NCBI GenBank assembly: GCA_023205875.1
Contig: CP060756.1
Coordinates: 434,001 to 498,000 of the forward strand
Source: Chloropicon primus
Taxonomy: Eukaryota
DNA: 64,000 nucleotides
Direction: 5' to 3'
In this document: positions 1,524-49,490 of the stretch, in pieces
Position numbering within the stretch: position 1 is the stretch's first letter
Layout of the letters: each line of letters opens with the position of its first letter
Program-made: the position numbers and the translations under genes
Notes under the pieces: generated by a model
Seen by the model: only the letters and a program-made list of their open reading frames with translations
Told to the model about the DNA's origin: nothing
Databases searched by the model: none

Positions 1524-4500
1524 ATGATTGACGTGAATCCTTCTGACTTGGCCATCAGAAACGCCAAGGTTGGCGAGACCTACGTCTTGCTGTGCAGCTT
1601 GAAGAACGACACAGAGCTTGTCTTGGACTGCAAAGTCCAATGTTCACAAGCTTGCTCGGAACGGTGGGCCGTGACCCCCAAAAGCTTTCGGCTGAAACCG
1701 AGGCAGACTCAAAGCTTGGAGCTGAAGATGACGATGAAGCAGCTGCCTTCGACGTCCTCAAGGAGGGCCCTGGCGTCCGGGGGGCTGAAGGACGTCTTCT
1801 ATCTGAAAACCCAGTACTTCGAGCAACGCTTTCACTGTTTGGTCTTCGGGGAGAGCAAATGCAAGGTGAAGGGAAAGGCGGTCGCCGCCGAAGATGCTCA
1901 GGCTGGGAGGTCCAAGAGAGAGACGGCAGCATGGGATGCCCGATCGCATTCGGCTGTGGACGTCGAGGTCGGGCTGCACCGCCTCGGAAGCAGGATCACT
2001 GACCTGGAAGCTCGGGAGCAAGCTCTGCAAGTTCTCGTCTCTCAGCTAGAAAAGCTCGTGAAGGACAAGGACGAGGTGATAAGCATGATGCAGAGTCACC
2101 TGCAGATGTCAAAGAGGGGTGACCTGGGTGGAGATGACCCCTCCGTCTCGGCGGGGGTGCCGACTGGTGAAGTTGGGGAGGTGAGCGGTTGTCAACTGAA
2201 GGACGAAAAGGCACAGGAAATTGCAACAATCCTGGGCTCCAACGCGCAGCTGCGAAACAAGGTCAACGAATTGTCCCTGCTCGTGGAAGAGAAGGAGAAC
2301 GAGCTCAGCATCACTCAGGAGGCTCTCAAAGCGATAAGCGCAGACGAGCCCAAGGTGCACGCCCTCGTCAAGGCCGCGGTCGAAAAGGAGCGCGCTGTGC
2401 ACGAGTCCAGGAACAGGAAGGTCGTCGAGATGTTCTCTGTCAAGGACGCTCAGATAGTTCATCTGCAAGACAGGCTAGACGAGGCAGAAGCAATCAACGC
2501 CGAGAAGAGCGATTTGATCGCAGAATTCAAGAGTCAACTCCAATCGACCGAGATGAAGGTCATGGAAGTGCTCGGGGAGAACCAAGTCCTGCAGAAGGAA
2601 AATTACCGCCTCAAGACAGAGAACATCACACTGAGCCAGTTGAAGCCAGCGAATGCAAACAGAAGTCTTGAGGACCAGTTGGTCAAAACCAAAGAGATGA
2701 ATCAGAGGCTCAATTCGAAGCTGAGGGAGAAGGAAGCCCTTGAGGAATTCTCAAGCGTGAAGAATCAGTCCCTCTCGGAGTCCGTCCACGAGCTCGAACA
2801 GTCTCTCGCCAGTGTCATTGCAAGCAACGCAGAAAAGATCAGGAGCAAGGATGTAGAGATCTCGCTTCTGACGAAAAGAATTGATCACAGTGATGCTTTG
2901 CTCAATGTTCAGAGGAACAGGGAAGGCTCGCAGCAAGGGGGCGGGCAGGGGGCGGCGCAGCAGGGCCATCCATGGCAGGGTGATGGGAAAGCCAGTACCA
3001 CGGCGGAGCCAAGCAACCTTGAAATGATGCTTGAGCTGAAGCAGGAGGAGGTCGCGCAGTTAAAGGTGAAGGTGAAAAAACTGGAGAATCTCCACGAGAA
3101 GGCGAAACAGACCGCCGTGGAAAGCGAAAGCAAGCTCAAGGAGTTGCACCAGAGAAGCAAGAGCGTGGTCTCATTGCAGAGATCTCGGAATGAGGTGAAG
3201 GAGCTGAAAGCGAAGTTGCAAGCTTTATCCAGGGATAGCAAGCTCAAGCTGGAGCAGAAGGAGGGCCTTTTGAAGGTGGAGAGGGCGAAAAGCAAGGGGC
3301 TCGTGCAAGAATTGGTCAATGAAAAGGAGAGGTCTGCCAAAGCGACGAAAGCTTTCTCTGGCGACGAAGAAAGGGAATCCATGGAGAGGCAGGTGGAGGC
3401 CGCCACCACATCACTGAAGGAGTGCCAAAACTCCCTCCAGGTGGTTCACGCCAAGTTCGTCAACAGCGAAAAAGAGAAGAGGCAGATCGAAACAAGCCAC
3501 AAGAACGAGAAGGAGAAAATCACGAGGAGTCTCCTGCACGCAGAGCAAAAGGTGAGAATGGCAGAGCTGCTGCAGCAGCAGAAGATCAACAATCTCGAGA
3601 GCACGATTCGTACTCTCTCTGGGAGAAGTGTCGAGCACAAAGAGCTTGCAGGAGCGAGGGCCGAGGTCGTGAGTCTCAGCAGAGACTTGCAGGCTCTGCA
3701 GGCCGAGAATGGGTTCCTGGGCAAGCAGATGGGCGTGAGCGAAGAAAAGCTTCGTGTGGCTCAGGTTGAGTTGCAAGAGCATCTCGCTTATGGGGATCTG
3801 AAAGAGTTCAAAGACGTTTATGGGAAGTACATCAGCGAAAGTGTAGTCATCGTAGAGCTCTCCAACAGACTGCAGGAGATGGAAAGGGAAGTCATGCGTG
3901 CCAAGAAAGGAGGAGTCCCAGCAGGTGAAGCTGGCACTTTGGAGAACGATGCCTTGCCTCAAGGCGCTTTGTCGCGCCCTCGAGAGACGCTGTCGAGGGG
4001 AACGATGACAACGGCTTTCGAAGATAGTGCAGAAGGAGCAATAGCCGCAGAGTCAAGCGTTGTCAGCCTTCAAGTCAAATTGAATGATCTTGCGTCTTAC
4101 GCAACAAAGCTGACAGAGCAGCTTCTCAGCAAAGAGAAAGAGTTGGCGGCAATCAAGGACGATCTCGCCCTTGTGAGGTCAACGAGGGATTCAGACCTGC
4201 AAGACTGGGAAGTCCCTCTGCCAGACCAATTCATCCCAGTCGACAAGTTAGAGGACGTGAGGCGCAGCAATAGGGACATGGAGACTCAGCTGCATCAGAT
4301 GGAAGAGAAGCTTTCCGCTATGAGAGCCAAGGGCATTGAAGGAGAAGAGCACATGAAGCGCGAGAACGGGAGGCTTTCCAAGAAATTGGAAGACTCGAGG
4401 AATGCCGAGATGGAAACGAGGAGACAGCTGACAGAAAAATCTTGCAGCCTGGACGAAAAGTCAGTTCAGTTGAAAATATTGAAGGAAGCCCTGAGTGCCT

Positions 4501-7500
4501 TGAAGTTAGGATATGTGAGCAATCCTTGCGACGAGGACCACATCCTATTGGTAGCCAAAGTGGCTTCAGCTGATGCGAAAGACATCGCTCACCAACGGCA
4601 CGTGGAGTACCTCATCTCAGAGTTAGATTTGAGGTCGCAAGTGATCCACGAAACCCAAGGGGAGCTGCACGTGCTGAGGGAGGACATAGAAAGGGTGCGG
4701 GTGGAAGCAAATGCGCGGAGGGAGGAGAACAAGGTGATCGCACAGCGGCTGAAGGTTGCAACGTCTGAGCTCAAGCAATACCACGATGAGAACATCGTGC
4801 TGGAGAGTAAATTGGAATTCAACAAGGAGAAGTACGCCAAGCTGAGGATGGAGCTTGACGTCGAGAAGCAGGTTGTGCTCAATCAGAGAAAGAGGCATTT
4901 CGAACTCATCGCAGCTGAACGGAGATCCATCGTGGAAGAGATGGAAAGGTTCAACGTCGAGCACTGCAATATTTGTGAAAGTTCCAGGCAAGTCACAAGG
5001 TTTATTATGGACTACGACGACGCTGTCAGTGTTCTGATCGCTGGCGCAAGGCCGGGGAGCGAGGGGATCGATATGGAGAAGCTCCAGCCATGCGTATCGA
5101 GTTTGAAATACCTCGGGTTGGAGGCATCTAAGCTGTTCGCCTCGAGCCAGACGAGCCTCCACGTGCTCTCAACCGAGACTGAGATACTGAGGTCCAGAGT
5201 CAAGGACTTGGAGCTAAAGAATGAGTGCTTGGCGGACAAGCTTGCCCTCTCGGACAGCATGAATGTTCTGCTCACGCAATCGCATCACTCTAGAAGTAAG
5301 ATCGCGTACCTAGTGACGAGCGAGAGCGGCCAGCGCAGGCAAGAGAGGATCAGCAGACTCAATTCAGAGCTGGACCAGGCGCAGATACAGGTGCTGAAGG
5401 AGCACAAGAGCAAGTGCCAGAGCCTCATTAAGGGCAAGCTGCTTGAGCAGAAGTACTTGCAGTTGAAGTGTGAGGTGCAGAGCATGAAAGCCCAGAAAGA
5501 GGTGGACGCTCCGCTGCCAGAGGCTCTTGGGGCGGACCTCTCTTCTCTCGGGGGCCCAGATCGTGGAGCCTCCGATGCCGGCGCCATTGCACAGACACTG
5601 AAGTTCAAACTCATGGAGAGCCACCTGATCCAGAAGGTCCAGGTGTCAAACAAGCAGGCCGAAAAGGCACGTGCAGAACTGAAAGAGCTTGCAAGGTCCT
5701 TCAAAGATCTCGCAGATAAAGTCAGCCAACACGTGTCCAAACAAGATGCCACGACAGACAAAGTCCTTGAGTCTCAAATTAGTGTGCAGGCCGAGCTGAC
5801 TTTGAGGAACAAGGAAAATTTCGAGCTCACGCAGAAATTGAAACACCTGTCTATTGAGGCAAACCTCCAGAAGAACGAGACGCTACTTGCGAACAGGAAG
5901 GTCGACATGGTTGAGTCAAGCTTCAGGGACTCTCTCAAGGTGCTTGATGCCGCTTTGGCTGAGCAGAGAAAGGAGCAGCAAGAAGTCCTAGGTTCCATCA
6001 TCGAGGAGGCTCGCTCGGAGGTTTCGATGACATTCCACTCTATTCTTGAGATGGTCAAGAGCTCACGGGAAACCACAAAGGCGAGCAAGGATTTGATCAT
6101 GGAAGATTTCAAGCAGATAAAGGGCTCCGCAAAAGACCACTCGATCCAAGCGCTTGCAAATTTGTCCTATCTTGACATCAATGGCATCCCTGTCGTGAAG
6201 GTCTCTGACTTGAGGGACATGAAGCTGCAAAAGAAGCTCCTCGAGCAAGAGAATGACAAACTCCTGAGCAGACTCGAGAGAAAGGAAAAGGAGGTTCTTG
6301 AGCTCACGGAGGACGTGGAGAGCCAAAAGCTAGCGTTGAGGGACTTGAGCAACACCTTCTCCAAGTCCGCGTTCAAGAAGATGCACTCGAGCGGAATGCT
6401 GAAGAGCACAATTTCGACCCTGAACAAGAAGCTGGTCGAGAGCAAATTGGTACAGGCTGACATGCAAAGGAAGCTGAAGATCTCTGCTCGCGCAGAGCTA
6501 GAGCTGAGGCAGCTGCTTCACTCCAGGGAGCAGAGGCTGACGACGCTGAACACAGAGATTCGGGCGTACAACCAGGCCCTGGACTCCATTCAAAAGTTTG
6601 CGGCCAAGGAGAAGAACCTCGAGTTCAAGCGAATCTTGCGGGACGTTGTCTTGAATTTGAGCACGATGAAGTCGACAGATCACGCCATTTCGGGCGTGGA
6701 AACAGGCCCCCGCGGGGACTACAAGGTGGATGCCCGAGTGGGAGTGTTTTCAGGAATGCGGATACAGATTGCGGAGAAGAACGCGAGGGTAAGTCACTTG
6801 GAGCAGAAACTTTCCGAGTACCTGGCGAGCACTCCCATCAAGCAAGAGGCTCAGCCGGACGAGGGATTGGACAAAAACATGCTCAGAGAAGTTTCCAAGT
6901 TCAACGAAGTGCTGAAAGAAACGATCAGCGGTGCCATCTCAAAAATTGTTGGCAAAGCTGGCGGCTCTGACCAGGAGCAATTGAGCTTGGACGGAGCTGT
7001 AGAAATTCTGCTTGACAGGGTGAAGCACGCGGAGCTGATGCTGGGCAGATCGCAAGCGAAAGTGAAAGCTCTCCGCGGAAAGGTGAAGGGCGCAAAGACG
7101 GAAGATGCGAATGCCTCACTGCAAAATGCGGTCAAGGGCCTCTCGGATAAATGCAGGGCCCTGGTCATGGAGAAGGCTGACCTCAAACTGGAGAGGGACA
7201 GATTGCTTGAGAGGCTGAACGCTTTGAAATCGTCGGCGAGCAAAAAGGCGGCCGAGACCAGCAAGCGGGGTGCTTCCAAGCCACGGAGAGTTTTGATGAA
7301 GAAACCAATTCGTGTCCTCGCGAGCGAGAAAGTTGAATTGAAAGACTCCTCCTCTCAGCCAGAAGACGAGCCGGAAGGCGGCATCGAGTCACAGTTTGAG
7401 CAAGTTCATTCCTTTGCTGACATGATTGATGTCCACCTCGCGGCAATTCACGATTTTGTTGTCAAGTCCCTCAACGATGACCCGGTGGTGCCAAGTGAAG

Positions 7501-10500
7501 CCGCGAACATTGACGAAGACTTTTCGAGCATCGGGTCACTGGTTTGTGTCATCAAGGACACCCTCAAGATACTCGCTTCAGAGGTATCGGACGGCCAGAC
7601 AGGCAAGCTTCCCGCGAAACTTGGTTCCAAGGTTGTTGGCCAAGAGCAGCCAATGAAGAAGGGGCACAAAGAAAGCGAGTGGGAATCCAAGTACTCGTCT
7701 TTGAAGGAAGCGTATTCGACGTACAGAAAGAGCAGCAAGATCGAAATGAATGCGTTGAAGGAAAAGAATATGAACGCGTCTGCTCAAGTCATTGAAGCGG
7801 CGAAGGATAAGGTGACCATGCAGGCAGAATTGCGCGACATGCAGAGGATGGTCGAAAAGGGCATCCTTGAAGTCGAGTCTCGGCAGAAGTCACGGAGTAA
7901 CTTGGCCCTGAAATTGACTGAGAGGGAGGCCCAGCTCCGCATCGCGAAGAGCAAGGCTAGAATGAGTGAGGACCAGGCGCAAGCGCGCATCGCTGAGCTC
8001 GAGAAGGACCTGAAGGCAACCGCCGGGACGATCACAGATGAGCGGGAGGAGAGAGCAAAAGTTCTGGTGATTTTGAGAAAAGCCGTGAATGACTTGAAGA
8101 CCCAGCTGCACATCGAATTTGACTTGAGGAACCAGCTTTATGCGATGGAACTGGAGAAGGAGACTGCCGTGAACTCCTACGAGAACAAGGAGAATCAACT
8201 TAATTCGGAATTGAAGGACCGCCAGGCGACTGAAATCAGAGTGAAGGAGCTTGAGGACAACCTCGTGATGGAGAGGCAGCAGTCTCACAACCTCAAAGTC
8301 AAGTACGAGTACATGAGGGAAGGCTTGAAGCAGTTGGAGATCAGGTTCAACGCCGCGGACAAGCACAGAGTGATTCTGGAGCGCACCGTTCAGCTCAAGC
8401 TGAACGAGTCGGAGAAGATCGCGGACAGCCTTTCGGTTGTTGACTTTGGCAAAGCGCCGATGATGATTTTGCTCGAGGTGCAAGAGATCGAGAAGCTCAT
8501 CAACAAGATGTCCCTTGAGATTCAAAAGGCCCAGAAGCAGAAGGAGGTCTCTTCGGACAAGTGGAAGTTCACCGCCCAGCTCGCTCGCTTCAAGAGGGTG
8601 ATCACAGATTGGAAGAAGGGCGAGGAAGCCAGGATGAAGAAGAAGATATCAGAGCTCAAAGCAGACTTGGCTCGAGCCCAGAACCAAAACATGGATCTGG
8701 CTCAGTGCTCGGAAAAGGCAGCTGACACGATTGGTAACTTGCAGGGCATTGTTTCCAGACTTGAAAGAGAGAAGGGCTTGTGTCAAAGTCTCTCGACGAC
8801 GTCAAGGAGATGTATTCAGTGGAGATGACCAGGCTGAGAATTCAGACAAAGACGGAAGCGATGCGCGAGCAGCAACATGTAGTGGGTGCGCTGAACGCAA
8901 GCATCTCAGAGACAGAGCAGGAGCTCGAGGACATGAAGGGAGAGCTCAAAGCCTTGAAGGGCATCGTCAAGGTTGATGCGAAGAAGATTATCGCAGAGTT
9001 CCATGAAATCAGCGAAGGGTCCAAGAGGGAAATCCTTGGCATGATGAGGTCGCTGGAGAGGCTCATTCCAGGACTGAAGACGAAGATGAAAGGAGCAAAG
9101 CTCCCTGAAGCTTCGAGGGCGCCTGCAGAGAAACGGGCGGTGTCCGGATCGGACTTTACCTCAGAAGTGATCCAAGAGATCCAGGACTTGGAAGGAGAAG
9201 AGGCCAAGAGCAACTTGGAATTGAAGCTCAGGCTGCAGTGCCAGCTGACGAAGAAGACCGAGAGGAGGGTGGTCCAGCTGAAGTCAGAAATTCAAGTGCT
9301 TACGAAAGAGCTGGAGCTGCAGCGCAGAAAGTACGAGGGTTACCCTTCAAGGGAAGATCTGGAGCAGAGGCAGAGAGCCTTCGACGACTGCAAGAAGTCC
9401 CTCAAAGATAGCAAGGCCCTGTGCACCATTCGGCTGAAAGAGATCAAGACTCTCAAGGAAGAGCTTGTGGACCTTAGAAGCAACTCAGCCAAGGCGAAGC
9501 TGAAGGAAGTGACGGAGAGGGTCGAGAACCTTCAAAGAAGATTGAAGGACTCGGCGTTGTCCATGCAGAGGAAGGACGTCATCATCAACGACCTCAGGCA
9601 GAGCGTTAGAGACTTGCAGGAGCAGGACCTCACCGAGAAATGGAACAAGACAGAGGCCAAGAACAAGCAGCTCTCCCTGGTAGTTCAAAGGCAGAGCGTT
9701 GCCATCAGGGAGCTTCGCACAAACGCCAGTCAAGCTTCGAAGAGCCTCGAGTCCGTTATGGTCAAGGAGAAATCTGAGAAGAAGTCGGATTTGCAGAAGA
9801 AGTTCAGGAGCGACATCAGGAGGAAGGACACAATCATCGCGCAGATGGGCAAGAACCTCGGCCAGCTCGAAGAGGAGCTCGCCGCCTCCGCGTCAACGAT
9901 CGAGGAGGCCAGCAAGAGGGAAGCTTTCGGCAGGAAAGCCGCGGAGCACGATTGGATTGCATTCAAAACGTTCATGAAGAATGCCATCTCGGCCGTGGAG
10001 AAAATGTCGAAGATTGTCGTCAAGAGCTCCAACGAGATGCGGGGCGTGGTGAAGACGGTGGCCAAGGCAGAGAAATTTCAAAAGATGGAGTCCTCCGCCA
10101 GGAACATAGCCCAGCTCGTTGAGATGTCCACCGCGGAAGTTGAGGACATTATGCAAGCCCAGGACGTCCAGTCCAAGGAGGAGAACTTGGAGACTTATCT
10201 CATCAACCTGTTTGGCGACATGAACAAGTCGATCGAGAGCATCCACCGTTCCAACATCGCAAAGAGCAAGGAGAAGTTCGTGGCCTCTTGGGACCCCTCG
10301 GTCTTGCTGTCCGTGGCAGAAATCCTGGAGAAGGATTTCATCCACGTTCGGCACCTGGTGTCCTCCTCCATGAAGGTCCTCCCTGAAGTGATCGTCGACC
10401 TGCCGAAAAGGAAAGCGCCAGGGACAGCACGGAAAAAATCAAAGAAGGGAAGCGCGGGAAAGGAGCCGCGCAGTTCCACCTCGAGCGCCGCAGGCACCCC

Positions 10501-18926: not shown

Positions 18927-19750
18927 GGTGTGCTCAGAGTGAGGAGTGAGAAGTTCTCAGTCCATCTTGTTCTTGTTCTTGTTCTTGTACATTCCCAAAG
19001 CCAAGCCAAGCCAAGACAAGACAAGCCAAGGGGATTCCTCCTCAGTCAAGTCAAAGAGAGCGAGGAAGAGGTGGCTAGGTTTTTCGGTGAGTGTGAATCC
19101 AGGTCAAAGGTTGCGTCTTGTTGACGATGGATGCGGCCCGAGAGACAGTAGCACTAGCGTACGCCACCGCCGACGAGTCCAGCTCTTGCCTGCAGAGAGA
19201 GAGAGAGATAGAGAGAGAGGATTCTTCTTCTCTTGGTCAATTCGGCGAGAGAGGAGGAGAGAGGAAGGAGGAGAGAGGGAGAGGAGAGGTGGATTGTGAT
19301 TGTCCCAAAGGCAGGCATGGCGATGACGAGAGCTCTTGTATTCTAGGCTTTGGGAGTGAGTATCGGCGCGTTACCTCGCCTCACTGCCCTTCCCACTGTC
19401 CTTCTCTTCGTTTACAAGCGCGGGCAAAGCGAGGAGGAGAGTCGACTCCGAGAAAGGTGGGGGTATAATACATGGTGTGTGTGTGTTTACTATGTATACA
19501 CTTTCGTGTTCCTTGACTTTATAGCCCTTCTCAACAGTTTTGTTCCCCCACACTTCTCTTAGTTTACAAAAAACACTGGTTTGCGCCGTACAAGCAAGCA
19601 AGCAAGAGCGCCGGAGTTCTCCTCTCGACCCGCGGTAGCAATAGAGTTTTCTTGAGGTGCTTGTTTTCTTGAGGTGCTTGAAAAAAGAAAAAAGGCTTGC
19701 TCTCCAAAATCTGAAACGTGAAAAAACGAATTCTTTCTTGGTGGTCACCC

Positions 19751-20485
19751 TCACGCGTTCTTGGCCGGCAGGACCGCCTGCACCAGCTGCTGGTTCACCT
19801 GCGCCGGAAGCGGCGGCATCTGCTTCATGATGCCCCCCGTGTTCGTCATGACCCCCTGGGCCTTGATCAGGTTCTCCCTGAACTTCAGAAGAAGGTCTGG
19901 GGCAAGAAGAGAAGAGAAGGGAGAGAGGAGAGGGAAGGCTCAGCATCGTCAGTCTCGGCGGGTTGGACGACGACGACAATGATGTTGAGAACTGTGACAC
20001 GTTGATGCGTCGTCCTCGTCGGACGGATGCGTCCTCGTCGGATGCCCCGTGACGCCCGTGCGGGGGAAAGGAGGGCGGTTGGAAGCCTTACCTGTGTTCT
20101 CGCGAACCTTGTTGTGCATCATGTTCTGCTGTATCTGCTTGATGACGACTATGTTCCGGTCCAGGACCTCCGTAATGGAGGCGTACAGCTGGTTAGCCTT
20201 CTCGCCGACCGGGCTCTGCTGCCTCTGCCACGACGCGGCCCCCGCGGCCTTGTCCGCCTTGTCCTGCTTCCTCTTCCCCGCGGACTCGCTCCCCTTCTTC
20301 TTCTTCTTCTCCTCCCTCTTGCTAAGCCACTTGACGCGAAGCGCGACGTCCCTCACGCTCTTTTGCGGCAGCAGCCCACTTATCTTGATGTACCGACCAA
20401 GAGGCGAAAACTTCTCCGAGGGGAACTTCTTCAGCGCCAGGTCGAGCTGGTGCTGCTCCTCCTCGTTCCACTTGGTCAACTCCAT
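19751..20485 (-). CDS. Myb/SANT-like DUF3755-family protein; exons 20485-20092 and 19896-19751
   Basis: WNEEEQHQLDLAL...KSVRDVALRVKWL. The spliced C-terminus ENT-DLLLKFRENL...MKQMPPLPAQVN is typical of DUF3755. Confidence 0.85.
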
Positions 20486-21266
20486 GTTCGTCGTCCTCGT
20501 CCTCGTCGTTGTCGTCGTTGTCGTCGTCGTCGTGTCACAAGGAAGGAAGGAAGGAAGGAAGGAACCACAACTGTTGCTCGTCGCCGTTGCTCGTCGGTTG
20601 AGTGCGTCCTCGCCAGCAGGAAAGGGGAAAAATACAACAGAAATATCTCTCAAGTGTACAAAACCCTCTTTTGTAAAACGGAGAAAGGAGGAAGAGGGGG
20701 ACGAAATCCACCGAGGACTTCTACGAAAATATTTAGAACGCAATTTCTACAACAGAAATTTTGCGCGGGAAAAAACTGGAAATGGATAAGGAGAGGACCA
20801 CTTGAGTTGAATGGGGCCGAGACGAGAAGAGGAGTCCATTGTCCGTTCGTCTGTCCCCCCCCCCCATCGTCGTCCCAACTCCGTTCCATCGCAAGGACGC
20901 CTTCCTTGCTTCCCTTCTCCCTCTTCTCTTCTCTCTCTTCTCTGTCTCTCTTGTCCGGTTGGGAAGCGAGCAGTGCCGAGCCGAGCACGAGCCGAGCCGA
21001 GTCCAAAGGTCGGTTCCGGTCCGGTCTTTCTGTCTTTCTGTCTGCCTTCCCCACCCCTGGTCCTGGATTCTCTCTCTTCGCTCATCACCGGGATCGCAAC
21101 CCTGCCGCTGCAGGGCGACGAGGACGGCGGGGATGGAACAACGGCGTCTGAAGGCCCCCCTCGACATCGCCCTTCCCGTCCCGTCCTCTGTCGTTCTCCC
21201 TCTTCTTGAAGGGACACCACCCACCCAATCCATGGATCCACCCATTCGACGCGACGCTACGCTTCA

Positions 21267-21417
21267 TACCTGTTAGTTTTCTGCAACAATCGTTTTACCG
21301 AGTTTGTAAGTTTCTCGGCAGGGTAATTCAGCCCTACCACGACAATTCCACCGTACATGAACGAACACTTCCGCCCACTTAGCGCACGGCAGCCCGTACT
21401 AACAAACGCATGTGCAA
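21267..21417 (-). ncRNA. Stand-alone copy of the putative Fanzor omegaRNA scaffold / element 3' end (no nuclease ORF)
   Basis: Manual alignment to 46939-47084 shows 8 substitutions plus one 5-nt indel. Same orientation and same 3' boundary (...AACTAACAGGTA). Confidence 0.75.
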
Positions 21418-21877
21418 GACAAGAAAACTCCACCGTACATGAACACAGACAAGAAAACTCTCTCTCTCTTTCTCTCCCTTCGAACTACTTTCCTTATCAT
21501 CAGAGTCAGAGTCTTTTACACCCCTCGTGTGCCTTACACTCCTCCTCCTCCTCCCCCTCCTCCTCCCAACGAGAACTGACACCTCACAGTTGGGCTGCTG
21601 GTGGTGGCTCCGTGACTCAACCCGCTGAACTCTTACCAGCCTCAAAGGCACCACCTTTGGGCGCAGAACGGCTCCACCTTCATCACTGCCCGCCTCCTTC
21701 CTCCTCCCTCGACTTCGTCAAGTAAGGAGCAAGCCAAAGGATTGCAAAGACGACGGCGACGGCGACGGCGAGCACCCCATTTTCATTCGGTTCGGTTTCT
21801 GGGAGACAACAACATACAATCCATTCCATTCCATTCCATTGCGTTGTAGACAAAAAGAGACGACGACGACGACGACG

Positions 21878-22006
21878 ATGGACTGGTACTACCCCGTCAT
21901 CAGTGCGGCCCTGGTGTTGCTCTCGGGCCTCTTCAGCGGCCTCACGCTAGGTGAGTCCACCAGGCACTCATTTCCTTTCAAGCTTTTTCACTGACTGACC
22001 CCACCA

Positions 22007-22041
<35 letters not shown>

Positions 22042-23701
22042 TCTTTCTCAACAAGGTCTGCTGTCACTGGACACGACCAACCTGGAGGTCCTGCAGGAGG
22101 CCGGCGACGAGACCGAGCAGAAGTACGCCAAGGTGATCAGGCCCCTGAGGAAGACGGGGAACCTGCTGCTGTGCACCCTCCTGCTGGGAAACACGCTCGT
22201 GAATACCCTGCTGAGTATCATGCTCGCCAGCATCTTGAACTCCTGGCAGGGCTTCGTGTCTTCCACGTTCCTGATCCTGATCTTCGGGGAGATCATCCCG
22301 CAGGCAACCTGCTCCAAGTACGGCCTCATGGTCGGCGCGCGCACCATCTACCTGACAAAGTTCTTCATGGCAATCCTCCTGCCTTTGACGTACCCCATCT
22401 CGTGGGGACTGGACAGGCTCCTCGGCCAGGAGATCGGCATCCTTTACAACAGGTCCGAGCTCAAGAGGCTCATCGAGATCCACGTGCAGAACCAGGACGT
22501 GTCGGAGCAGGGGGGGATGCTCGACGCCGAGGACCAGGTCATGCTCACCGGAGTGCTGGACTACAAGCAGAAGGTCGTGAACGACGTGATGACCAAGCTG
22601 GAGAAGGTCTTCATGATCGACGTGCAGACGAGGCTGAGCTTCGAGACCATCTTGGACATCTACAAGTCCGGTTACACGAGAATTCCGGTGTACGAGAAAT
22701 CGAGGGACAACGTCGTGGGGATCTTGTACGCCAAGGACCTCATCCTGGTCGACCCGAGCGACGAGGTTGAGGTCAGGACGATCTTGGCTTTCCACGAGAA
22801 GAAGGTCATCAAGGTCCTGGACACCACGCCCCTGAACATCGTTTTCAGGATGTTCAAAACCTCCTTCGTGCATCTCCTCGTCGCCGTGCACCTGGACGAG
22901 AACAAGGACATGTGGATCCAGAACGTCGACAAGATGAACCACACGCTTCAGTGCCCTCAGAGGGTCGTGGGGATCATCACCCTGGAGGACGTCCTCGAGG
23001 AGGTGATCAAGGCCGAGATCGTGGACGAGTCCGACAGGTTCACGGACAACCTGCAGAACACCTTGGTGCCAAGCAAGAGAAGGAAAGGGATGCAGAGGTA
23101 CCTCGAGCTCTTCAGCTACAGGTCAAATGTGGGGGTCCAGCTGTCCGAGAACGAGAGGGACGCCGTCAGACTGTTTTTGGTGGAGTGCTGCCCAGACTTT
23201 GCGACCTTCAGCAAGTCCAGCAGGGCGCTCTTGAAGTACATCGAAGACTCTCAGGTCGTCGAGATGACCGAGGAGCAGTTGCAAGGTCACGGGGACCTTG
23301 GCTACTGTCTTTTCACCAAGGGAGCGCCGTCGGACGAGGTCATGATCATGCTGGCGGGAACCGTGGAGGTGACCAGCGGAAAGGAGAGCTTCAAGACGTC
23401 GCTCGGCCCGTGGTCGATACTCGGGTCCAACATGCTGAGCTCCATTCGATCGAAAACGTACATCACGGACTTCACCGCTTATGTCAAGTCCGATTACTGC
23501 AGAATCCTGAAGCTCAACAGGACAAAGTACTACATGCTGCTGGACAAGGAGAAGGAGAGCGACAGGAACCTCACCTTGTCCCAGCTCCAGGAGCGAGGCA
23601 TTCCAGAGGGGGAAGCGCCGGATGAGTCCGATATGGAGGACGTTCAGGTGGACCTGTTTCGACGAAGCAGTTCGGAAAGGGAGGAGAACGACAGGCTTTG
23701 A
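21878..23701 (+). CDS. CNNM/DUF21-CBS metal transporter; intron 21951-22055
   Basis: LVLLSGLFSGLTL/GLLSLD, LLCTLLLGN, FGEIIPQA, SGYTRIPVY, GIITLEDVLEE, C-terminal cNMP-like domain. Confidence 0.92.
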
Positions 23702-23768
23702 GCCACACTGTATATGATGAAGAATCGCGGCGGGAATTCTTAACACACGAACAAACATTGTATCAAAA

Positions 23769-25286
23769 CTAGTTTACCAGCTCCGGACCCTTGGGCCCAC
23801 CCGCGCGTGTCTTGAGTGAGGGATGGGTGTGTGTTTTGCTCTCGTACGACTTGTCCAGCTCCAGCATGAGCTTGACGTTCGATGCCACGAACACAACGCT
23901 CGAAAGGAAGAGAGGGAACAGGGCCGACTCCATCTTCTCGAACTCGTACAGGTATGCCCAGAACAGCCAATTTAGCTGCGACAGGACCCACAGGAAGACC
24001 GCAAGCTTCAAGGCCTTGCGGACCGCAACTGCGGACTTTGGTGACAGGATTGACGGAAAGACCAAGGGCAGGAGGACGAGGTACCAAGCGAAATACTGCG
24101 CCGTGACGACCTTGTTCAGTGCCACGAAAGATAGAGTGACCATGAACAAGGAATACGGCAAGGATGACGCCTTGATCAGCCCGTAGTACGCCAGGCACAG
24201 CACTTGGGGCAGAAATGCCGCGAGGCCCAAGACCTTCCTGGCTCCGTCATTTGTAACGACCCTGAAGATGAAGAACCACGGCGAGAAGTTGTGGGCAAGG
24301 TCGTACCTGCCAAAGTGGTACAGAATTGCCTCGTCCAAGTACCTCTGCCCCTCGGCGAGGTAAAAGGCCAAGCACAGAGCCGCGAACGTGAAGGCCGAGG
24401 AGAGGGCGAAAGCTGCTTTGCTTTCGTTCAACGAGACCAAGTCCCGGAACCCGTTTTGTACGGTGAAGATGCTCCTTGATGGTCGGCCCAAGTGAACCAG
24501 CAGCGGAAGCACGTAAATGATGGGAAATATCCTGATGTGCACCGCGAGCCCGTACCAAAACCCGGCCGCGGCGTGCTTCCTGCGCTCCAACAGAAGCAGC
24601 ATGAAAACGATGCACAGGCTGCTTATGGAGTCCGAGCTCCCTCTGCTGGATATCGTCGCAGTGTACGGATTGAAGAGCCACAGACCCAAGGCCCACAGCA
24701 CCACAGAGTTCTGACTTGGGTTGCCAGCACCACCCTCAACGACAGAGCGCCCTTCTCTGCCAGGGGACCTGCTGCTTTGCGCCTCGCCGCGAAGCAGCTT
24801 GAGGTGAACGATCGCTATCATCACGTCCGCGTTCGAGAACAGGACCTTCCCAAACGCCTTGAAAAGCACGTGGTTCGGCACGAGCAGGTGCGCTATGAGC
24901 GGAGTGTATCGATACGTTTCCCTGTCGAAGGGACTCCGGCCTCTGAGAACATGGAGAGCCGCGTCGGTGTACACCTCGTAGTCAATGTCCGTGTACTTCA
25001 CCTTGAAGTACGCGTCCTGGAAGAAGGCGAAGAGCACGAGAACGAGGCGAGCGACGAGGCCGAGGAATATCAACCGCTTCGCGTCGGATCCTGAAAACCT
25101 GAACGCTTTCCACATCATCATCATCATCTTCCTCGAAGCACTTCGCAGGAAACCGCAAGTGACGAGTCGGGCTACCCAGCGACAACACGAGCAGCAGCAC
25201 GAGCAGCAGCACTCGCCGTCGTCGCCCTCCGCCTCCCCCTTCTTCTCCCCCGGACCGACGCGCCCTTTTCCTCCAGCGACCGCCAT
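23769..25286 (-). CDS. PIGM: GPI mannosyltransferase I (start uncertain)
   Basis: VKYTDIDYEVYTDAA, TYRYTP, ISSRGSSDS, HNFSPWF, NKVVTAQYFAWY. Confidence 0.93.
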   Translation of the reverse strand: MAVAGGKGRVGPGEKKGEAEGDDGECCCSCCCSCCRWVARLVTCGFLRSASRKMMMMMWKAFRFSGSDAKRLIFLGLVARLVLVLFAFFQDAYFKVKYTDIDYEVYTDAALHVLRGRSPFDRETYRYTPLIAHLLVPNHVLFKAFGKVLFSNADVMIAIVHLKLLRGEAQSSRSPGREGRSVVEGGAGNPSQNSVVLWALGLWLFNPYTATISSRGSSDSISSLCIVFMLLLLERRKHAAAGFWYGLAVHIRIFPIIYVLPLLVHLGRPSRSIFTVQNGFRDLVSLNESKAAFALSSAFTFAALCLAFYLAEGQRYLDEAILYHFGRYDLAHNFSPWFFIFRVVTNDGARKVLGLAAFLPQVLCLAYYGLIKASSLPYSLFMVTLSFVALNKVVTAQYFAWYLVLLPLVFPSILSPKSAVAVRKALKLAVFLWVLSQLNWLFWAYLYEFEKMESALFPLFLSSVVFVASNVKLMLELDKSYESKTHTHPSLKTRAGGPKGPELVN

Positions 25287-25442: not shown

Positions 25443-26893
25443 TTACCCTTCCAGCCTCTTCAAAGCCTTCTTGAGGTCGAGGCCCGTCAGGCTCTCCACG
25501 GCGTCGGGGAGCTGCGCAGCCGCCTTGATGATATCCTTCGACAGGTTCGACGCGCTGCTTCCGTCAGAGGACACGAAGATCATCTTCTCCGTCTTTCCGA
25601 GTGGCTGGGCGATCTCTCTCGCAAGGCTTGGGAGCATCTCGACCACGTTCTGCACGATCGCGTCGTGGCCGAACTCCTTGTAAATTTCAGCCCTCTGTTG
25701 CAAGACCTCGTTGGCGGCATCGCCCTTCATTTTGATGATATCGGCCTGAGCTTTGCCGATCAGTCTCTCCTTCTCACCGATGGCTTCGGCCTGAAGAGTC
25801 ATGGCCTCCGCTTCCCTTGCGGCGACGTTCACCTGCTGCTGCAGCTCGATGTCCTTCACCTTCAGCATGACCTCCTCCTCGCGAAGCTTCTGGGTCGCCT
25901 GGGCCTCCACGATCGCCTGCTTCTGCTTCGCGTACTCAATATCCTTGGCGGACGCAGCCGCTGCGTCTGCCATGTTGACCTCCAACTTGTTCTTAGCCTT
26001 CCTGAGGTCAAGCAGGCGGTCGGCCTCCGCCTGGGCCTCCTCCTGCTTCTGCCTCCGGATGTAAGCGCGCTCCGCGTTCTCGGCCGCCACGATGTCGGCA
26101 TCCGCATTTGCCTTCGCGAGCGTCTTCCTGGACTCCGCCTGGTTCCTCGCGGTACCCTCAGCGGCCTCCCTGGCCACAATCGCAGTCTGGGTCCTCCCGA
26201 GAGCTGCCATGTAGCCATTGTTATCGCTGATCTCAGCCACCGTGTAACTGGCGAGCTCGAAACCAAGTCGCTCCAGATCGTCCACGACGTGCTCGTACAC
26301 CCTCTCGGAGAACGCTGCCCTGTCCTTGTAGAGCTCCTCCACCGTCAGGGTTCCCACGATCTGCCTCTGGTGACCCTCCAAGGTCTTCTGCAAAGCATCC
26401 TCAATGTCTTGCTCCCTTGCGGACAAAAAGTTCGTGGCCGCGAGCTTGATGGAATTGATGTCAAGGTTCCCATCCTTTGTCGACTTCACCTTGACCTGGG
26501 CGAAGGACTTGAGGTTGATCTTCACGCCCTTCACCGTCTCTGCGTCGATCGAGTTCACCGTGATGGTGATGATCTCAAGCGAAAGACTGTGTGCCTCCTC
26601 GATGCAGTACAACGCAAACCCACACTTTCCGATCAGGATTCTCTGACCCCTGTAGCCCGACACGATCACCGCCTTGTTGGGCGGAGCTTGAAAAACGAAG
26701 CAGCCGCAGCACACGTTCGAGTCAGTCAAGGAGGAGTCCCACACTCACGAGCCAGGGTTACGGTTCTCCCAAACCAAACATCACCGGGTCGCCGTTCCGT
26801 TCCGTTCCGTCAAAAGAGGAAACCAATGAATAAGGAATAAATCATTGTGTCACGAGTCGAGTCGAGACACTTACCTACGACGATGTTCCCCAT
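25443..26893 (-). CDS. Flotillin-like SPFH protein, copy 1; exons 26893-26875 and 26686-25443
   Basis: Spliced MGNIVVAPPNKAVIVSG; TLEGHQRQIVGTLTVEELYKDRAAF; flotillin coiled coil. Confidence 0.93.
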
Positions 26894-28602: not shown

Positions 28603-29868
28603 ATGGGGAACATCGTAGTGGCGCCGCCGAACAGCGCGGTGATCGTCTCAGGATGCAGGGGAAACAAGATCGTACTCGGAAAGTGCGGGTTTGCGTTGTG
28701 GTTCGTGGAAACCGCCCGGAGTCTCTCGCTCGAAATCATGACGATCACGGTCAACTCCAATGAAGCCGAGACTGCTCAGGGCGTGAAGATTAACCTCAAG
28801 TCCTACGCCCAGGTCAAGGTGAGGTCGCTTAACGCGGACGGATCCATGAACATGGATGCCATCAAGCTCGCGGCCACGAACTTTTTGTCCGCGAGCCAAT
28901 ACGAGATTGAGGATGCTTTGCAGAAGACCTTGGAGGGTCACCAGAGGCAGATCGTGGGAACCCTGACGGTGGAGGAGCTCTACAAGGACAGGGCAGCGTT
29001 CTGCGAGAGGGTGTACGAGCACGTCGTGGACGATCTGGAGCGACTTGGTTTCGAGCTTCCGAGTTACACGGTGGCTGCGATTAGTGACATGAATGGTTAC
29101 ATGGATGCCTTGGGAAAGACTCAGACTGCGATCGTGGCCAGGGAGGCCGCGGAGGGTACCGCGAGGAATGATGCGGAAGCGAGGAAAGCAATTGCCAAGT
29201 GCAACGCAGATTCAGATATCGTGGCGGCTGAGAACGCGGAGCGCGCTTACATCCGGAGGCAGAAGCAGGAGGAGGCCCAGGCGGAGGCCGACCGCCTGCT
29301 TGACCTCAGGAAGGCCAAGAACAAGATGGAGATCAACAAGGCCGAGGCCGAGGCTGTGTCCGCCAGGGACATCGAGTACGCGAAGCAGAAGCAGGCGATC
29401 GTGGAGGCCCAAGCGACCCAGAAGCTTCGCGAGGAGGAGGTCATGCTGAAGGTGAAGGACATCGAGCTGCAGCAGCGGGTGAACGTCGCCGCAAGGGAAG
29501 CGGATGCTTTGAAGCTTAGGGCGGAAGGAGCCAGCAAAAAGGAAATGCTGATCGGCAAAGCTCAAGCCGATGTCATCAAGATGAAGGGTCAGGCTGAAAA
29601 CGACATTTTGAGGAAGCGGGCCGAGGTTTACAAGGAGTACGGCCACGACGCGATCGTGCAGAACGTGGTGGATGTGCTCCCAAGCCTTGCGAGAGAGATC
29701 GCCCAGCCACTCGGAAAGACGGAGAAGATGATCTTCGTGTCCTCTGACGGAAGCAGCGCGTCGAACCTGTCGAAGGATATCATCAAGGCGGCTGCGCAGC
29801 TCCCCGACGCCGTGGAGAGCCTGACGGGCCTCGACCTCAAGAAGGCTTTGAAGAGGATTGAGGGGTGA
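28603..29868 (+). CDS. Flotillin-like SPFH protein, copy 2 (intronless)
   Basis: Close paralog of copy 1 with the same motifs. Confidence 0.93.
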   Translation: MGNIVVAPPNSAVIVSGCRGNKIVLGKCGFALWFVETARSLSLEIMTITVNSNEAETAQGVKINLKSYAQVKVRSLNADGSMNMDAIKLAATNFLSASQYEIEDALQKTLEGHQRQIVGTLTVEELYKDRAAFCERVYEHVVDDLERLGFELPSYTVAAISDMNGYMDALGKTQTAIVAREAAEGTARNDAEARKAIAKCNADSDIVAAENAERAYIRRQKQEEAQAEADRLLDLRKAKNKMEINKAEAEAVSARDIEYAKQKQAIVEAQATQKLREEEVMLKVKDIELQQRVNVAAREADALKLRAEGASKKEMLIGKAQADVIKMKGQAENDILRKRAEVYKEYGHDAIVQNVVDVLPSLAREIAQPLGKTEKMIFVSSDGSSASNLSKDIIKAAAQLPDAVESLTGLDLKKALKRIEG

Positions 29869-45636: not shown

Positions 45637-45955
45637 CATCGAGGCTGGTTGACAAGCGCTCTCCTCTCTCCTCCAAACTTCTCTCGTGCGTTTCCACCAA
45701 GTTTCACTCACACCGCCATCAAGAGAAAGCGTTTGATGGATGGATGGATAGTTTGTTCGTTTGGTTCGTTGATGCAGAGGTTGGCTGGGGTTCGACATCG
45801 AGGCTATTGGCGTCAAAGCATCTCTCGTGCGTTTCCACCAAGTTTCACACCGCCATCAAGAGAAAGCAAGTGATTGATTGGTTGATTGGTTGTTCGAGCC
45901 TTTGTTCGATTGTTGTTCGATTGTTTGTTCGTTTGGTTGGTTGATGCAGAGGTTG
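45637..45955 (+). repeat. Imperfect tandem duplication (~150-160 bp units) between NIP7 and the methyltransferase
   Basis: TCTCTCGTGCGTTTCCACCAAGTTTCAC, CACCGCCATCAAGAGAAAGC and GTTGATGCAGAGGTTG each occur twice in the same order. Confidence 0.85.
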
Positions 45956-46675: not shown

Positions 46676-46938
46676 TCCAACCCACCGAGGGGGAAGGGCA
46701 CTGCCTTCAGACGCTCTGCAGCATTGTGCCTTTATTGTAATCTATCACTCTTGCTTCTCATGATCCACTCACCCAAATCAAACAGCTTGTTATGGTGTTC
46801 AGACATCAGATCAAAACAGCACACAGAAAAGTCACGAAAGGACGGTAGGGAAATCACAGTCAATACTGGAAGCACAAAGGCAAGTTCTCCTTTCCACTGA
46901 AAGAGAGAAACACGGAGAGACGAAGACCGGCCACAACT

Positions 46939-47084
46939 TACCTGTTAGTTTTCTGCAAAGGTCGTTTCACCGAGTTTGTAAGTTTCTCGGCAGGGTAATT
47001 CGGCCCTACCACGACCATTCCACCGTACATGAACGAATACTTCCGCCCACGCACGGCAGCCCGTACTAACAAACGTATGTGCAA
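46939..47084 (-). ncRNA. Putative Fanzor omegaRNA scaffold / element 3' end
   Basis: Starts 10 nt after the Fanzor stop codon. Nested stems UUGUUAGU/ACUAACAG, GUACGG/CCGUGC, GGUCGU/ACGACC, AGGG/CCCU, CCGAG/CUCGG. Conserved in a second copy. Confidence 0.75.
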
Positions 47085-47094
47085 CCCTGAGGAG

Positions 47095-49266
47095 TTACAC
47101 ACTTTTTGGTTGACGCAAGTGCTTCAGGAGGACGTTGCGTGCCCCGTTCACATCCCGACCGCACTTGAAGCCACACTTCTGGCACTTGTACACCTCTGCT
47201 CCACCCAGGTTGTCCTTGATGTGTCCGCACCTGCCACAGGTCTTGGAGGTGTACTCCTCCGTCACGATCGCCAGCTCACTGCCGTGCAAGAGCACCTTGG
47301 AAGCCAAGAACGTTCTGAACGCATAGTGCCTCAACGTCAAGAGCGTGCGAGCCGTCTTCTTCCTGATCACTCGGCGTCTCCCGTTGTTGTTCTTCTTCAC
47401 CATGTCTTGGGACTTGAACTCCGGGAGGAGGATTGTGTCGAACCTCCTGCATAGATCGTTGGCTACCTTTTTGTGAAGCTCGTTCGTCAGACCTCGAAGT
47501 TTCTCCATGCAGGCGTATTGCTGTCTCTTCAAGTCGCGGCGGTCGAGGTAAGGGAGCTTCACCTTTGGGTCTTTGCGCTCGGAAATGATCTCATCAATCC
47601 TCCAGCAGAGGTTGAACAGCCTCGCGAAGCCTCGCTCGCCCGTGGCATACTCCCCGACGCCTTCTTGCGGCGAGTACGACGTCTGAAAGGTCCTGACTCC
47701 CGGATCCAGGGCGACAACCTTCCGCTTGTTCTCAGGCTTCAGGGGTGGCAGGCGATCCCATGGCGTCGCGATGGGAATGTGCATGTGGAACTGCCCAAGG
47801 CGATTTCTTGTGATCTTCACGGCACCCTCGATCTTGCCCCCGGGGATCTCCTCCGTCAAGTACAGGGGCCCGCCGGCCATCTTCTTCTTGAACACCTCCA
47901 GCTTGGTCCACTTGCGTCGTTTCTTGTGCTTCGTATCATCCTTGTGCCTCGTGTTTGGCCTTTCGATCGTCTCCACGTTCTTTAACTCTCTTGCATCAAT
48001 TTCAATAGTCCAAGAGCTTGGTTGCTGACGTTGACGATACTTGAGAACGAAGCGGTGCCCCTTCTTCTCGCCGCGCTCCTTCATCGCTTCCTGCTTCGCG
48101 GTGTTCGAATCCCATGCCTTGATGAGACTTCGCACGGCAGCTTGTCTGATGGCACAGGGGGTTTCCTTCAGCCAAGGATGCTTCTGATTCACAAAGGCCC
48201 CGCTAACGTAGTCCCGGTCCTTGCCCACTTGGATGCGAAAAGCTCTGCCTCCAATTTGGCTCTCGAGTCTCTTCTCTCTGGCCGCGAAAAGCTCTGCCTC
48301 CTGTTTTGTCCATGGCCGTGGAGAGCATTGGATTTCTTTCAGCTCTTTCTCCAGGCCCTCAAAGACCTCAGGGCGTCGCGGTTTGGCCGTCACAAATCTG
48401 TCCAGCAGGACGGTCCAAACCAGCGGAAAATCCTCCTTCTTGACCGCCTCCAAACACTTGTTGTATGTGAAACGCGCAGCTCCCATCCAGTTGCAAAGGC
48501 ATTTCGCCTGCTCAGGGTTCAAGCGCATCCTAAGCTTCCTCGTCCGTATCACCGTTCGCTCCGACAATAGCTTGGAGGTCTTCAGTTTCTGCTCCCTCTT
48601 CCTTTTGGCGGGCGACTGCAATGTCTCGACGGATACCACAGAATCTTCTGGAAGGTTCAAGCACGACCTCCATCCCGTCTTCGGACACTTTACCTCTTCA
48701 AGTTCTCTCTTGATCGATGAGAACCAGGTCTTCTTCACGCTGTCGTCCGCCAAGCCACCCGGCTGCTTCCCTGCTTTCTTCCCCCTCTTGTTGCCCTTCT
48801 TCTTGCCCTTCTTCTTGTTCTTCTTCTTGCCCTTCTTGCGAGGCTTCTTGCGAGGCTTGCCTGACGAGCTCGAACTCTCACCCGCAGAGGCGTCCGCCTC
48901 CGGCGGCTTCCCCTTCCGCTTCCCCCCCCGCTTCTTGCGAGGCGTGCTCGAACCCTCCTCGAAAGCAGAGGCGGGGTCGTCCAGCGGCTTCTCCTTCCGC
49001 TTCCCCCCCCGCTTCTTGCGAGGCGTGCTCGAACCCTCACCCGCAGAGGCGGGGTCGTCCGCGTTAGGAAGCAGGCACAACGCGTAGAGCCACGCTAAAC
49101 CCTGATTCCAGAACCGAAGTAACGGCCGCTCCGTCGTCGGAGACTCCTGCCCCGACTTCGAAGCGCCCTGAGCATGACTCTCGCCAGAGTGCGACCTCCT
49201 TGTGGAACTCGTCGAGCCACTCCCCTGCTTCTCCTTTTTCTTACGGCGCTTCCCTGATCGCGCCAT
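47095..49266 (-). CDS. Fanzor2 (IS607-type TnpB-derived RNA-guided endonuclease), 723 aa
   Basis: RTRKLRMRLNPEQ...WMGAARFTYN; WLKETP; RuvC-I VALDPGVRTF; RuvC-II ILLPEF; HYAFR; zinc finger EEYTSKTCGRCG...CQKCG; RuvC-III RDVNGARNVL. Confidence 0.93.
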   Translation of the reverse strand: MARSGKRRKKKEKQGSGSTSSTRRSHSGESHAQGASKSGQESPTTERPLLRFWNQGLAWLYALCLLPNADDPASAGEGSSTPRKKRGGKRKEKPLDDPASAFEEGSSTPRKKRGGKRKGKPPEADASAGESSSSSGKPRKKPRKKGKKKNKKKGKKKGNKRGKKAGKQPGGLADDSVKKTWFSSIKRELEEVKCPKTGWRSCLNLPEDSVVSVETLQSPAKRKREQKLKTSKLLSERTVIRTRKLRMRLNPEQAKCLCNWMGAARFTYNKCLEAVKKEDFPLVWTVLLDRFVTAKPRRPEVFEGLEKELKEIQCSPRPWTKQEAELFAAREKRLESQIGGRAFRIQVGKDRDYVSGAFVNQKHPWLKETPCAIRQAAVRSLIKAWDSNTAKQEAMKERGEKKGHRFVLKYRQRQQPSSWTIEIDARELKNVETIERPNTRHKDDTKHKKRRKWTKLEVFKKKMAGGPLYLTEEIPGGKIEGAVKITRNRLGQFHMHIPIATPWDRLPPLKPENKRKVVALDPGVRTFQTSYSPQEGVGEYATGERGFARLFNLCWRIDEIISERKDPKVKLPYLDRRDLKRQQYACMEKLRGLTNELHKKVANDLCRRFDTILLPEFKSQDMVKKNNNGRRRVIRKKTARTLLTLRHYAFRTFLASKVLLHGSELAIVTEEYTSKTCGRCGHIKDNLGGAEVYKCQKCGFKCGRDVNGARNVLLKHLRQPKSV

Positions 49267-49490
49267 GACCGGTAGGGTTTCACTCGCTGCCCTCCTCGTA
49301 ACTCCTCGTAACTATAGATTTGCCTTGTCCAGCAAGTGAGAACACGAAAAAAACGCTTAGTGGGTTGTCCTTTGGGTGTGACCAAACTGGTATACACTGG
49401 AATCCCACCAACAGGGGAAAACCTCCAACACAGCTGTCTGTCGGGTCGCGTCCGTCGAGTCGAGAGGAGGAAAGGGAAAGGCCAAGGCAG

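Follow-up and report, generated by a model that had tools for sequence, protein, structure and literature searches.

A Fanzor2* transposable element of Chloropicon primus probably has its guide RNA assembled by the host splicing machinery, from the scaffold that the element encodes and the flank into which it has inserted. Namely, the structured scaffold of the omega-RNA ends at a sequence that reads AACAG/GTAAGT, a consensus splice donor, and we are confident that splicing occurs there. Because of this donor motif, the invariant tail that follows it, the AG kept directly after the right end of the element and the departures of contigs at the donor, the tail and the AG together are most likely a 156-nt spliceosomal intron. 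What is more, a second copy of the scaffold, here called the orphan, is the scaffold joined directly to non-element DNA, which is to say the predicted spliced form written in DNA.

The Fanzor2* element, its protein and its ends

The window, by which we mean the entire stretch of 64,000 nucleotides that was analysed, contains one complete element, with the following parts:

46788..49430, minus strand: full Fanzor2* element, 2643 bp, with ends TGTTGGAGG...CCATAACA and without a transposase; the ends match published insertion alleles
46783..46787, minus strand: right copy of the target-site duplication, AGCTG, whose AG, predicted to serve as splice acceptor, is kept in other copies
49431..49435, minus strand: left copy of the target-site duplication, AGCTG, taken from the sequence
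47095..49266, minus strand: Fanzor2 ORF, 723 aa, with RuvC residues D521 (DPG), E670 and D705 and the zinc finger intact and a Lys-rich N-terminus (Pfam, alignment)

By its testable features, the product of the ORF is a Fanzor2, and RNA-guided DNA cleavage is predicted for it. Pfam finds the domains HTH_OrfB_IS605 and Cas12f1-like_TNB, and in an alignment of 10 of the 120 matches listed plus the query set, the RuvC-I DPG, the RuvC-II glutamate (shifted to six residues before the zinc finger) and the RuvC-III aspartate are all present. The best PDB match, with an E of 9e-20, is 9b0l, "TnpB-like protein L79", which we take to be the mimivirus Fanzor2. The closest relatives are Chloropicon primus proteins called "putative IS605 transposase" (90-99% identity, in a cluster of 46 members), with named Fanzor2* relatives from the same species being 97-99% identical, and the genome paper counts 25 such "IS605 transposase" genes (PMC6731263). 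A protein scan with query P0003 gave no confirmed viral relative; a scan with alignment A1 gave seven loci at 24-37% identity, of which 5 are viral and 2 prokaryote, and in the six whose downstream DNA was compared, nothing was in common with the scaffold. The N-terminus of the protein (48760-49060) is encoded by 81-nt and 12-nt repeats that specify Lys/Arg-rich, NLS-like stretches, and these repeats are missing from relatives at 59% identity or less.

The element has the termini TGTT...AACA, with AGCTG at both sides as a 5-nt target-site duplication. With terminal inverted repeats, a target-site duplication, a single ORF and no IS607 recombinase, it fits the Fanzor2* type, named and described as non-autonomous, with terminal repeats and a variable 5-nt duplication, in PMC10711439 and the preprint. 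Three heterozygous insertions of 2664-2707 bp in Supplementary Data 8 of PMC6731263 are this same kind of element; two of the alleles show the right end, by eye with the same 150-nt tail beyond AACAGGTA, and one shows the left end, all in noisy long-read letters and with the other end of each allele out of view. In the published alleles chr3:123680 and chr6:369520 (homologous to 46788-47157), 24-26 nt and not 5 stand beyond the right end, which would fit a loss of about 20 nt of predicted target from the empty allele. This is no more than suggestive of a resistance scar left by a homing nuclease; Fanzor2s are described as cutting 9-19 nt from their motif (PMC10432273). An alternative delimitation, with a TA duplication and an element ending at CAGG, was rejected, as it has no matching left end and the published alleles extend further. 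Some 60 nt separate the left end from what is likely the start codon of ALG9, near 49491.

Several other features of the window were noted along the way. An inverted duplication (77-89%) of a flotillin/Band 7 gene occupies 25445-26687 and 28621-29866, a 2434-aa ORF at 1524-8828 has no Pfam match at E 0.001, a non-coding stretch upstream of a methyltransferase gene is duplicated at 45700-45955 (families D11 and D19), and the stretch 54001-56000, which has no ORF of at least 150 aa, has a GC content of 0.40, compared with about 0.56 elsewhere.

Scaffold, splice donor and predicted intron

The splicing argument concerns the right end of the element, its counterpart in the orphan and one host intron:

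46942..47084, minus strand: predicted omega-RNA scaffold, 143 nt, the last exon part before the donor; the main contig of run X16 ends exactly at 46942
46786..46941, minus strand: predicted spliceosomal intron, 156 nt, GTAAGT...CTGAT...AACAAG, including the right terminal repeat (sequence and contigs)
46768..46785, minus strand: predicted (by inference) element guide after splicing, host flank, beginning CTGTTTGATT
21270..21417, minus strand: orphan omega-RNA scaffold copy, 148 nt, ending ...AACAG, intron-less (BLASTN; one contig in run X1)
21951..22055, plus strand: host CNNM intron, likewise ending AACAAG; its removal gives a continuous CNNM N-terminus

A sequence-only reading of this DNA had claimed that 21267-21417 repeats 46939-47084 with 8 substitutions and a 5-nt indel, and BLASTN within the window returns just this pair (138 of 151 columns identical, 91.4%, E 7.6e-58), with both copies on the minus strand and the 5 nt inserted in the orphan. 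The claim that only scaffold and no Fanzor coding DNA is repeated is likewise confirmed, since the match begins 10 nt past the TAA of the ORF. Both copies end their homology at AACAGGTA and differ thereafter, as had been read, but the stretch AGTTGTGGCC... on the Fanzor side is neither flank nor guide: because the element extends to 46788, it is internal to the element, and the same tail recurs in two published insertion alleles at other chromosome positions. What had been taken for the guide of the Fanzor copy is, by prediction, intron. Where the two copies stop matching at the 3' side, there is a splice donor, 151 nt short of the transposon end, and the element extends 151-154 nt past the end of the structured scaffold.

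The predicted intron has GT...AG ends, a pyrimidine-rich body (U at 60 of 156 nt) and a branch-point-like CTGAT at 46809, 23 nt upstream of the AG, and it contains no AG between 46867 and 46787. Its 156 nt compare with a published mean intron length of 152 bp in Chloropicon primus (PMC6731263), and the CNNM intron would be a local precedent for an AACAAG acceptor. A 45-nt intron to the AG at 46897 was considered and rejected, given that no such joint is listed and that an X16 contig spans the site.

Contigs of four runs (X1, X14, X15 and X16, from at most 3 samples and 3 studies) were compared with 46690-47500. The kinds of these runs are guesses: X1 behaves as DNA, X15 and X16 were guessed to be RNA, and X14, guessed to be DNA, is read here as RNA because it is without the orphan stretch though it comes from the same sample as X1. 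Contigs leave the reference at 46939-46942 in 5 of the 19 loose-end rows listed (two each in X14 and X16, one in X15 and none in X1); among these rows they show four distinct continuations, one of them common to X14 and X16, and all five offsets fit a junction at 46942, via chance agreement with the GTA beyond. The 12-mers of the four continuations are absent from the window, and these sequences may stem from intron-less copies in the genome or from splicing to host acceptors further away. The X16 main contig has a depth of 1888, versus about 105 for the tail contig, which is a weak hint, as contig depth cannot rank the parts of a gene. On the acceptor side, right-end loose-end contigs match to 46786, and hence keep the AG, in all 6 listed (X1 three, X14 two, X16 one); of the published alleles, one likewise has AG directly after the right end, and the other, noisy one has it 2 nt later. 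At the element locus, the flank contig of X14 stops at 46787 and that of X1 runs on to 46815, a stop at 46787 being the branch point expected, because spliced and unspliced forms would diverge there. A joint 46786-46942 is not listed for this locus in the contigs of the four runs, and contigs with the tail retained are also present in X14 and X16. Separately, a short Fanzor coding fragment, 47140-47195, lies inside unrelated sequence elsewhere in the genome, with loose ends at 47195 in X1, X14 and X16.

The 143-nt segment itself is very likely the Fanzor omega-RNA scaffold. An 8-bp closing stem pairs its 5' part with ACUAACAG, and this stem and the strong fold both stop at the donor, while the element tail folds weakly. 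A search of 46700-47300 against Rfam at E up to 1 gave 0 matches, and an 18-nt pattern from the scaffold end gave 15 metagenome matches, all without further similarity, and 0 matches in viral contigs. We rejected the description of the scaffold as invariant, as the listing, limited at 1%, may miss rare variants, and there is a diverged subfamily that departs in mid-scaffold. This Fanzor subfamily (contigs of X14 and X16; about 12% different at the 3' end of the ORF; 47055-47226, 46969) keeps both scaffold ends and departs or skips 85 nt between them (joint 46969-47055), possibly a minimal scaffold.

If splicing proceeds in this manner, the element would work like an OMEGA homing system. It would insert at AGNNN, and its transcript would consist of the ORF, the 143-nt scaffold and the tail; the spliceosome would then remove the 156 nt from donor to AG and join the scaffold to NNN (the last 3 nt of the duplication) and the flank, giving the omega-RNA. 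The spliced guide would carry the sequence of the empty allele directly after the AG, and Fanzor could cut that allele behind an AG-ending motif, which would favour homing. The CAG before the target, as opposed to the AAG at the filled junction (at the one known site), could tell empty from filled. Published Fanzor2 motifs have 3 nt (PMC13565253), and that of MmeFz2 is TAG (PMC10432273). We infer that the spliced RNA is the one that Fanzor loads; splicing of the mRNA alone would not prove loading.

The orphan copy and its origin

Two further features adjoin the orphan scaffold:

21252..21269, minus strand: sequence in the guide position of the orphan, beginning GTATGAAGCG; the putative guide role follows from its position
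21418..21460, no strand assigned: junction scar, a 13-nt host stretch duplicated (21418-21430 and 21448-21460) around a 16-nt scaffold piece (repeat family D18)

The guide register of the orphan would begin 3 nt earlier than had been read from the letters, at GTATGAAGCG..., and this guide and the intron of the element open with the same 3 nt. Among the rows listed, the orphan alleles (the 5-nt insertion with the upstream flank) appear in one contig of X1, and X1 has one loose end at 47084; rough depths in this run are 130 for the orphan contig, 117 for unique flank and about 3600-4000 for the element. No RNA run was listed as containing the orphan stretch, and the contigs of X14-X16 do not cover the orphan alleles; neither result bears on expression. 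Neither end of the element, left or right, was found in 19000-24000 around the orphan, and BLAST of the whole element at the orphan region returned the scaffold as its only match; the orphan is not a non-autonomous element, as had been suggested for such copies. Of the further suggestion that one nuclease is served by many dispersed guides, what survives is that the pool of nuclease probably meets many guides; the orphan, a single X1 contig, is not a family. A more plausible source of diverse guides is the set of roughly 25-30 full elements, each of which would be spliced to the flank at its own site.

How did the spliced form come to be written in DNA? We lean, with little more than even confidence, towards the orphan being a single intron-less DNA copy of a spliced guide, made by copying RNA into a DNA break, and probably a relic rather than a working gene. 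A broken end at the target would have been extended on the spliced RNA, which would set both orphan boundaries in one event, and end-joining would then have left the templated scar at the 5' side of the orphan. The 16-nt piece within the scar (21429-21444) equals the scaffold interior at 47019-47034, and the scar is of the type of Pol theta templated insertions; Pol theta can also copy RNA (PMC9962433). It had been anticipated that random decay would give random boundaries, and those of the orphan instead match the scaffold.

One RNA-templated event can account for both boundaries, and so can two deletions in DNA. We regard as possible, though unlikely, that splicing is real and that a resident element lost its intron across an AGGTA microhomology and, separately, its left end and ORF. 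The homology of the orphan reaches exactly 3 nt (GTA) into the intron, as a duplicated AGGTA predicts, and this overlap favours a DNA route; a guide that starts with GTA supplies the 5-nt AGGTA microhomology by which an intron is deletable in DNA without any RNA, which counts against the RNA-templated origin. The triplet after the AG is GTA in one of the eight other copies seen. The scar would on this account be break repair at the 5' side of the orphan, and other short Fanzor fragments do exist, such as the match to 47140-47195.

It is unlikely that the orphan, whatever its origin, functions as a guide gene in its own right and serves, in trans, Fanzor protein made elsewhere. Both of its boundaries fit the scaffold, ghost omega-RNAs of Spizellomyces are described as working in cells (PMC10432273), and X1, set apart from the window by a 9-nt insertion nearby, has the orphan as well; yet the orphan is a single copy. 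The sequence-only reading had all stems but one unchanged, and that one with a G-U pair retained. The 8-bp closing stem and two hairpins are indeed intact, but the GGUCGU/ACGACC stem takes 4 of the 8 substitutions and loses one pair, and the 5-nt insertion puts a bulge into an 18-bp stem of the minimum-energy fold at a cost of about 5 kcal/mol, the ensemble energy going from -55.9 in the element copy to -50.7 kcal/mol in the orphan. The folding z-score is -4.3 for the element copy and -0.9 for the orphan. In either structural model the substitutions break 1 pair; 1500 random sets of 8 changes break 2.5-2.7 (P 0.14-0.21), and comparisons of energy with random substitutions gave P 0.12-0.23 (ensemble P 0.11, 500 sets). 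Sparing of structure by the orphan substitutions beyond chance was, in other words, not found (P 0.11-0.23), and the changes are as compatible with selection on the fold as with its absence.

The proposed search for guide targets, in the window and in viral contigs, gave none beyond chance. In particular, 12-mers of the orphan guide have chance-level matches only in the window, and in viral contigs there is one exact 17-nt match, which has no AG before it and no flank similarity and was treated as chance; in the GTATG register the viral contigs gave 0 matches. A CAG stands directly before the guide match at the own site of the orphan. The guide would match only this site, and self-cutting would be expected if the motif is CAG (one known site), which again argues against a guide gene in use.

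A more far-reaching version, in which the spliceosome programs Fanzor and spliced guides, from the flank or from alternative host acceptors, are written back as a guide repertoire of which the orphan is a live gene, appears to us distinctly improbable. Least of all do we credit the idea that the intron matures only the Fanzor mRNA, that the omega-RNA stays unspliced (with a fixed internal guide or a repeat-containing scaffold) and that the orphan arose by truncation. According to PMC10711439, the Fanzor2* scaffold appears to include repeats and duplications, and contigs of X14 and X16 do retain the tail, but this tail is U-rich and weakly folded, the strong fold ends at the donor, and a fixed guide leaves both the clean join of the orphan and the 24-26 extra nt of the published alleles unexplained.

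Significance and comparison with known systems

When a cut-and-paste transposon captures a Fanzor, the transposon end comes to separate the scaffold from the guide. In the published view, this end has been absorbed into the scaffold (PMC10711439); the evidence here points to its removal as a spliceosomal intron, with an acceptor borrowed from the insertion site. If true, the guide cannot mature without the host spliceosome and polymerase II, and the enzyme, expressed in bacteria from its raw locus, would be paired with the wrong RNA. The splice reading also delimits the scaffold to 143 nt and proposes a motif that ends in AG. The chief interest of the orphan is as a fossil of this spliced form, and the approximately 25 polymorphic insertions make Chloropicon primus tractable for the study of Fanzor homing in a native eukaryote.

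Among titles and abstract openings of largely open-access literature, we found no report of a spliceosome-assembled Fanzor guide, and it is likely that this is a new way of making one. Introns in the coding regions of Fanzors are described in PMC10530073, two supplements of which have no Chloropicon rows; PMC12301720 speaks of transposase families and no more; and the strings "splic" and "intron" are absent from the main text of PMC10711439. The Fanzor2* of Chloropicon primus in that paper (see also bioRxiv 10.1101/2023.08.09.552727) are alike in protein family, in being Fanzor-only and in their terminal repeats and 5-nt duplication. There, however, repeat and duplication are proposed to be built into the scaffold, whereas here the repeat is apparently spliced out and the duplication apparently begins with AG.

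Among transposons at large, the combination of TGTNR-like ends with a 5-bp duplication recalls Ginger2/TDD elements, in particular TDD-4 and TDD-5 (PMC2836005), but the present element has short, degenerate repeats and encodes no transposase, the search for a partner gave none, and the likeness is a lead only. The ghost Spu-1 loci of Spizellomyces punctatus resemble the orphan in being omega-RNAs without a Fanzor ORF, proposed to form a guide repertoire; the idea of loci that hold a guide only is thus not new. The ghosts, however, occur 134 times, are about 550 nt long and have both inverted repeats, while the orphan is a single copy that lacks both ends and the intron (PMC10432273).

The nearest parallels in splicing are IStrons and introners. 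IStrons, in which IS605/IS607 is combined with a group I intron, are likewise TnpB-family elements whose right end is also the 3' splice site, but they self-splice the whole element in competition with the omega-RNA, whereas here a spliceosomal intron would create the guide RNA (PMC13565253); nor does 46700-47300 contain a group I ribozyme by Rfam at E up to 1. Introners, as described in PMC9860276, are DNA transposons that carry a 5' splice site and take the 3' splice site from the target-site duplication, just as is proposed here, but they excise the whole element from a host gene, while here the right end only would be excised, from the element's own transcript. Finally, the canonical omega-RNA scaffold reaches the right end of its element with the guide adjacent in the DNA, whereas the scaffold described here ends 151-154 nt inside the element, and its guide would be brought next to it by splicing.
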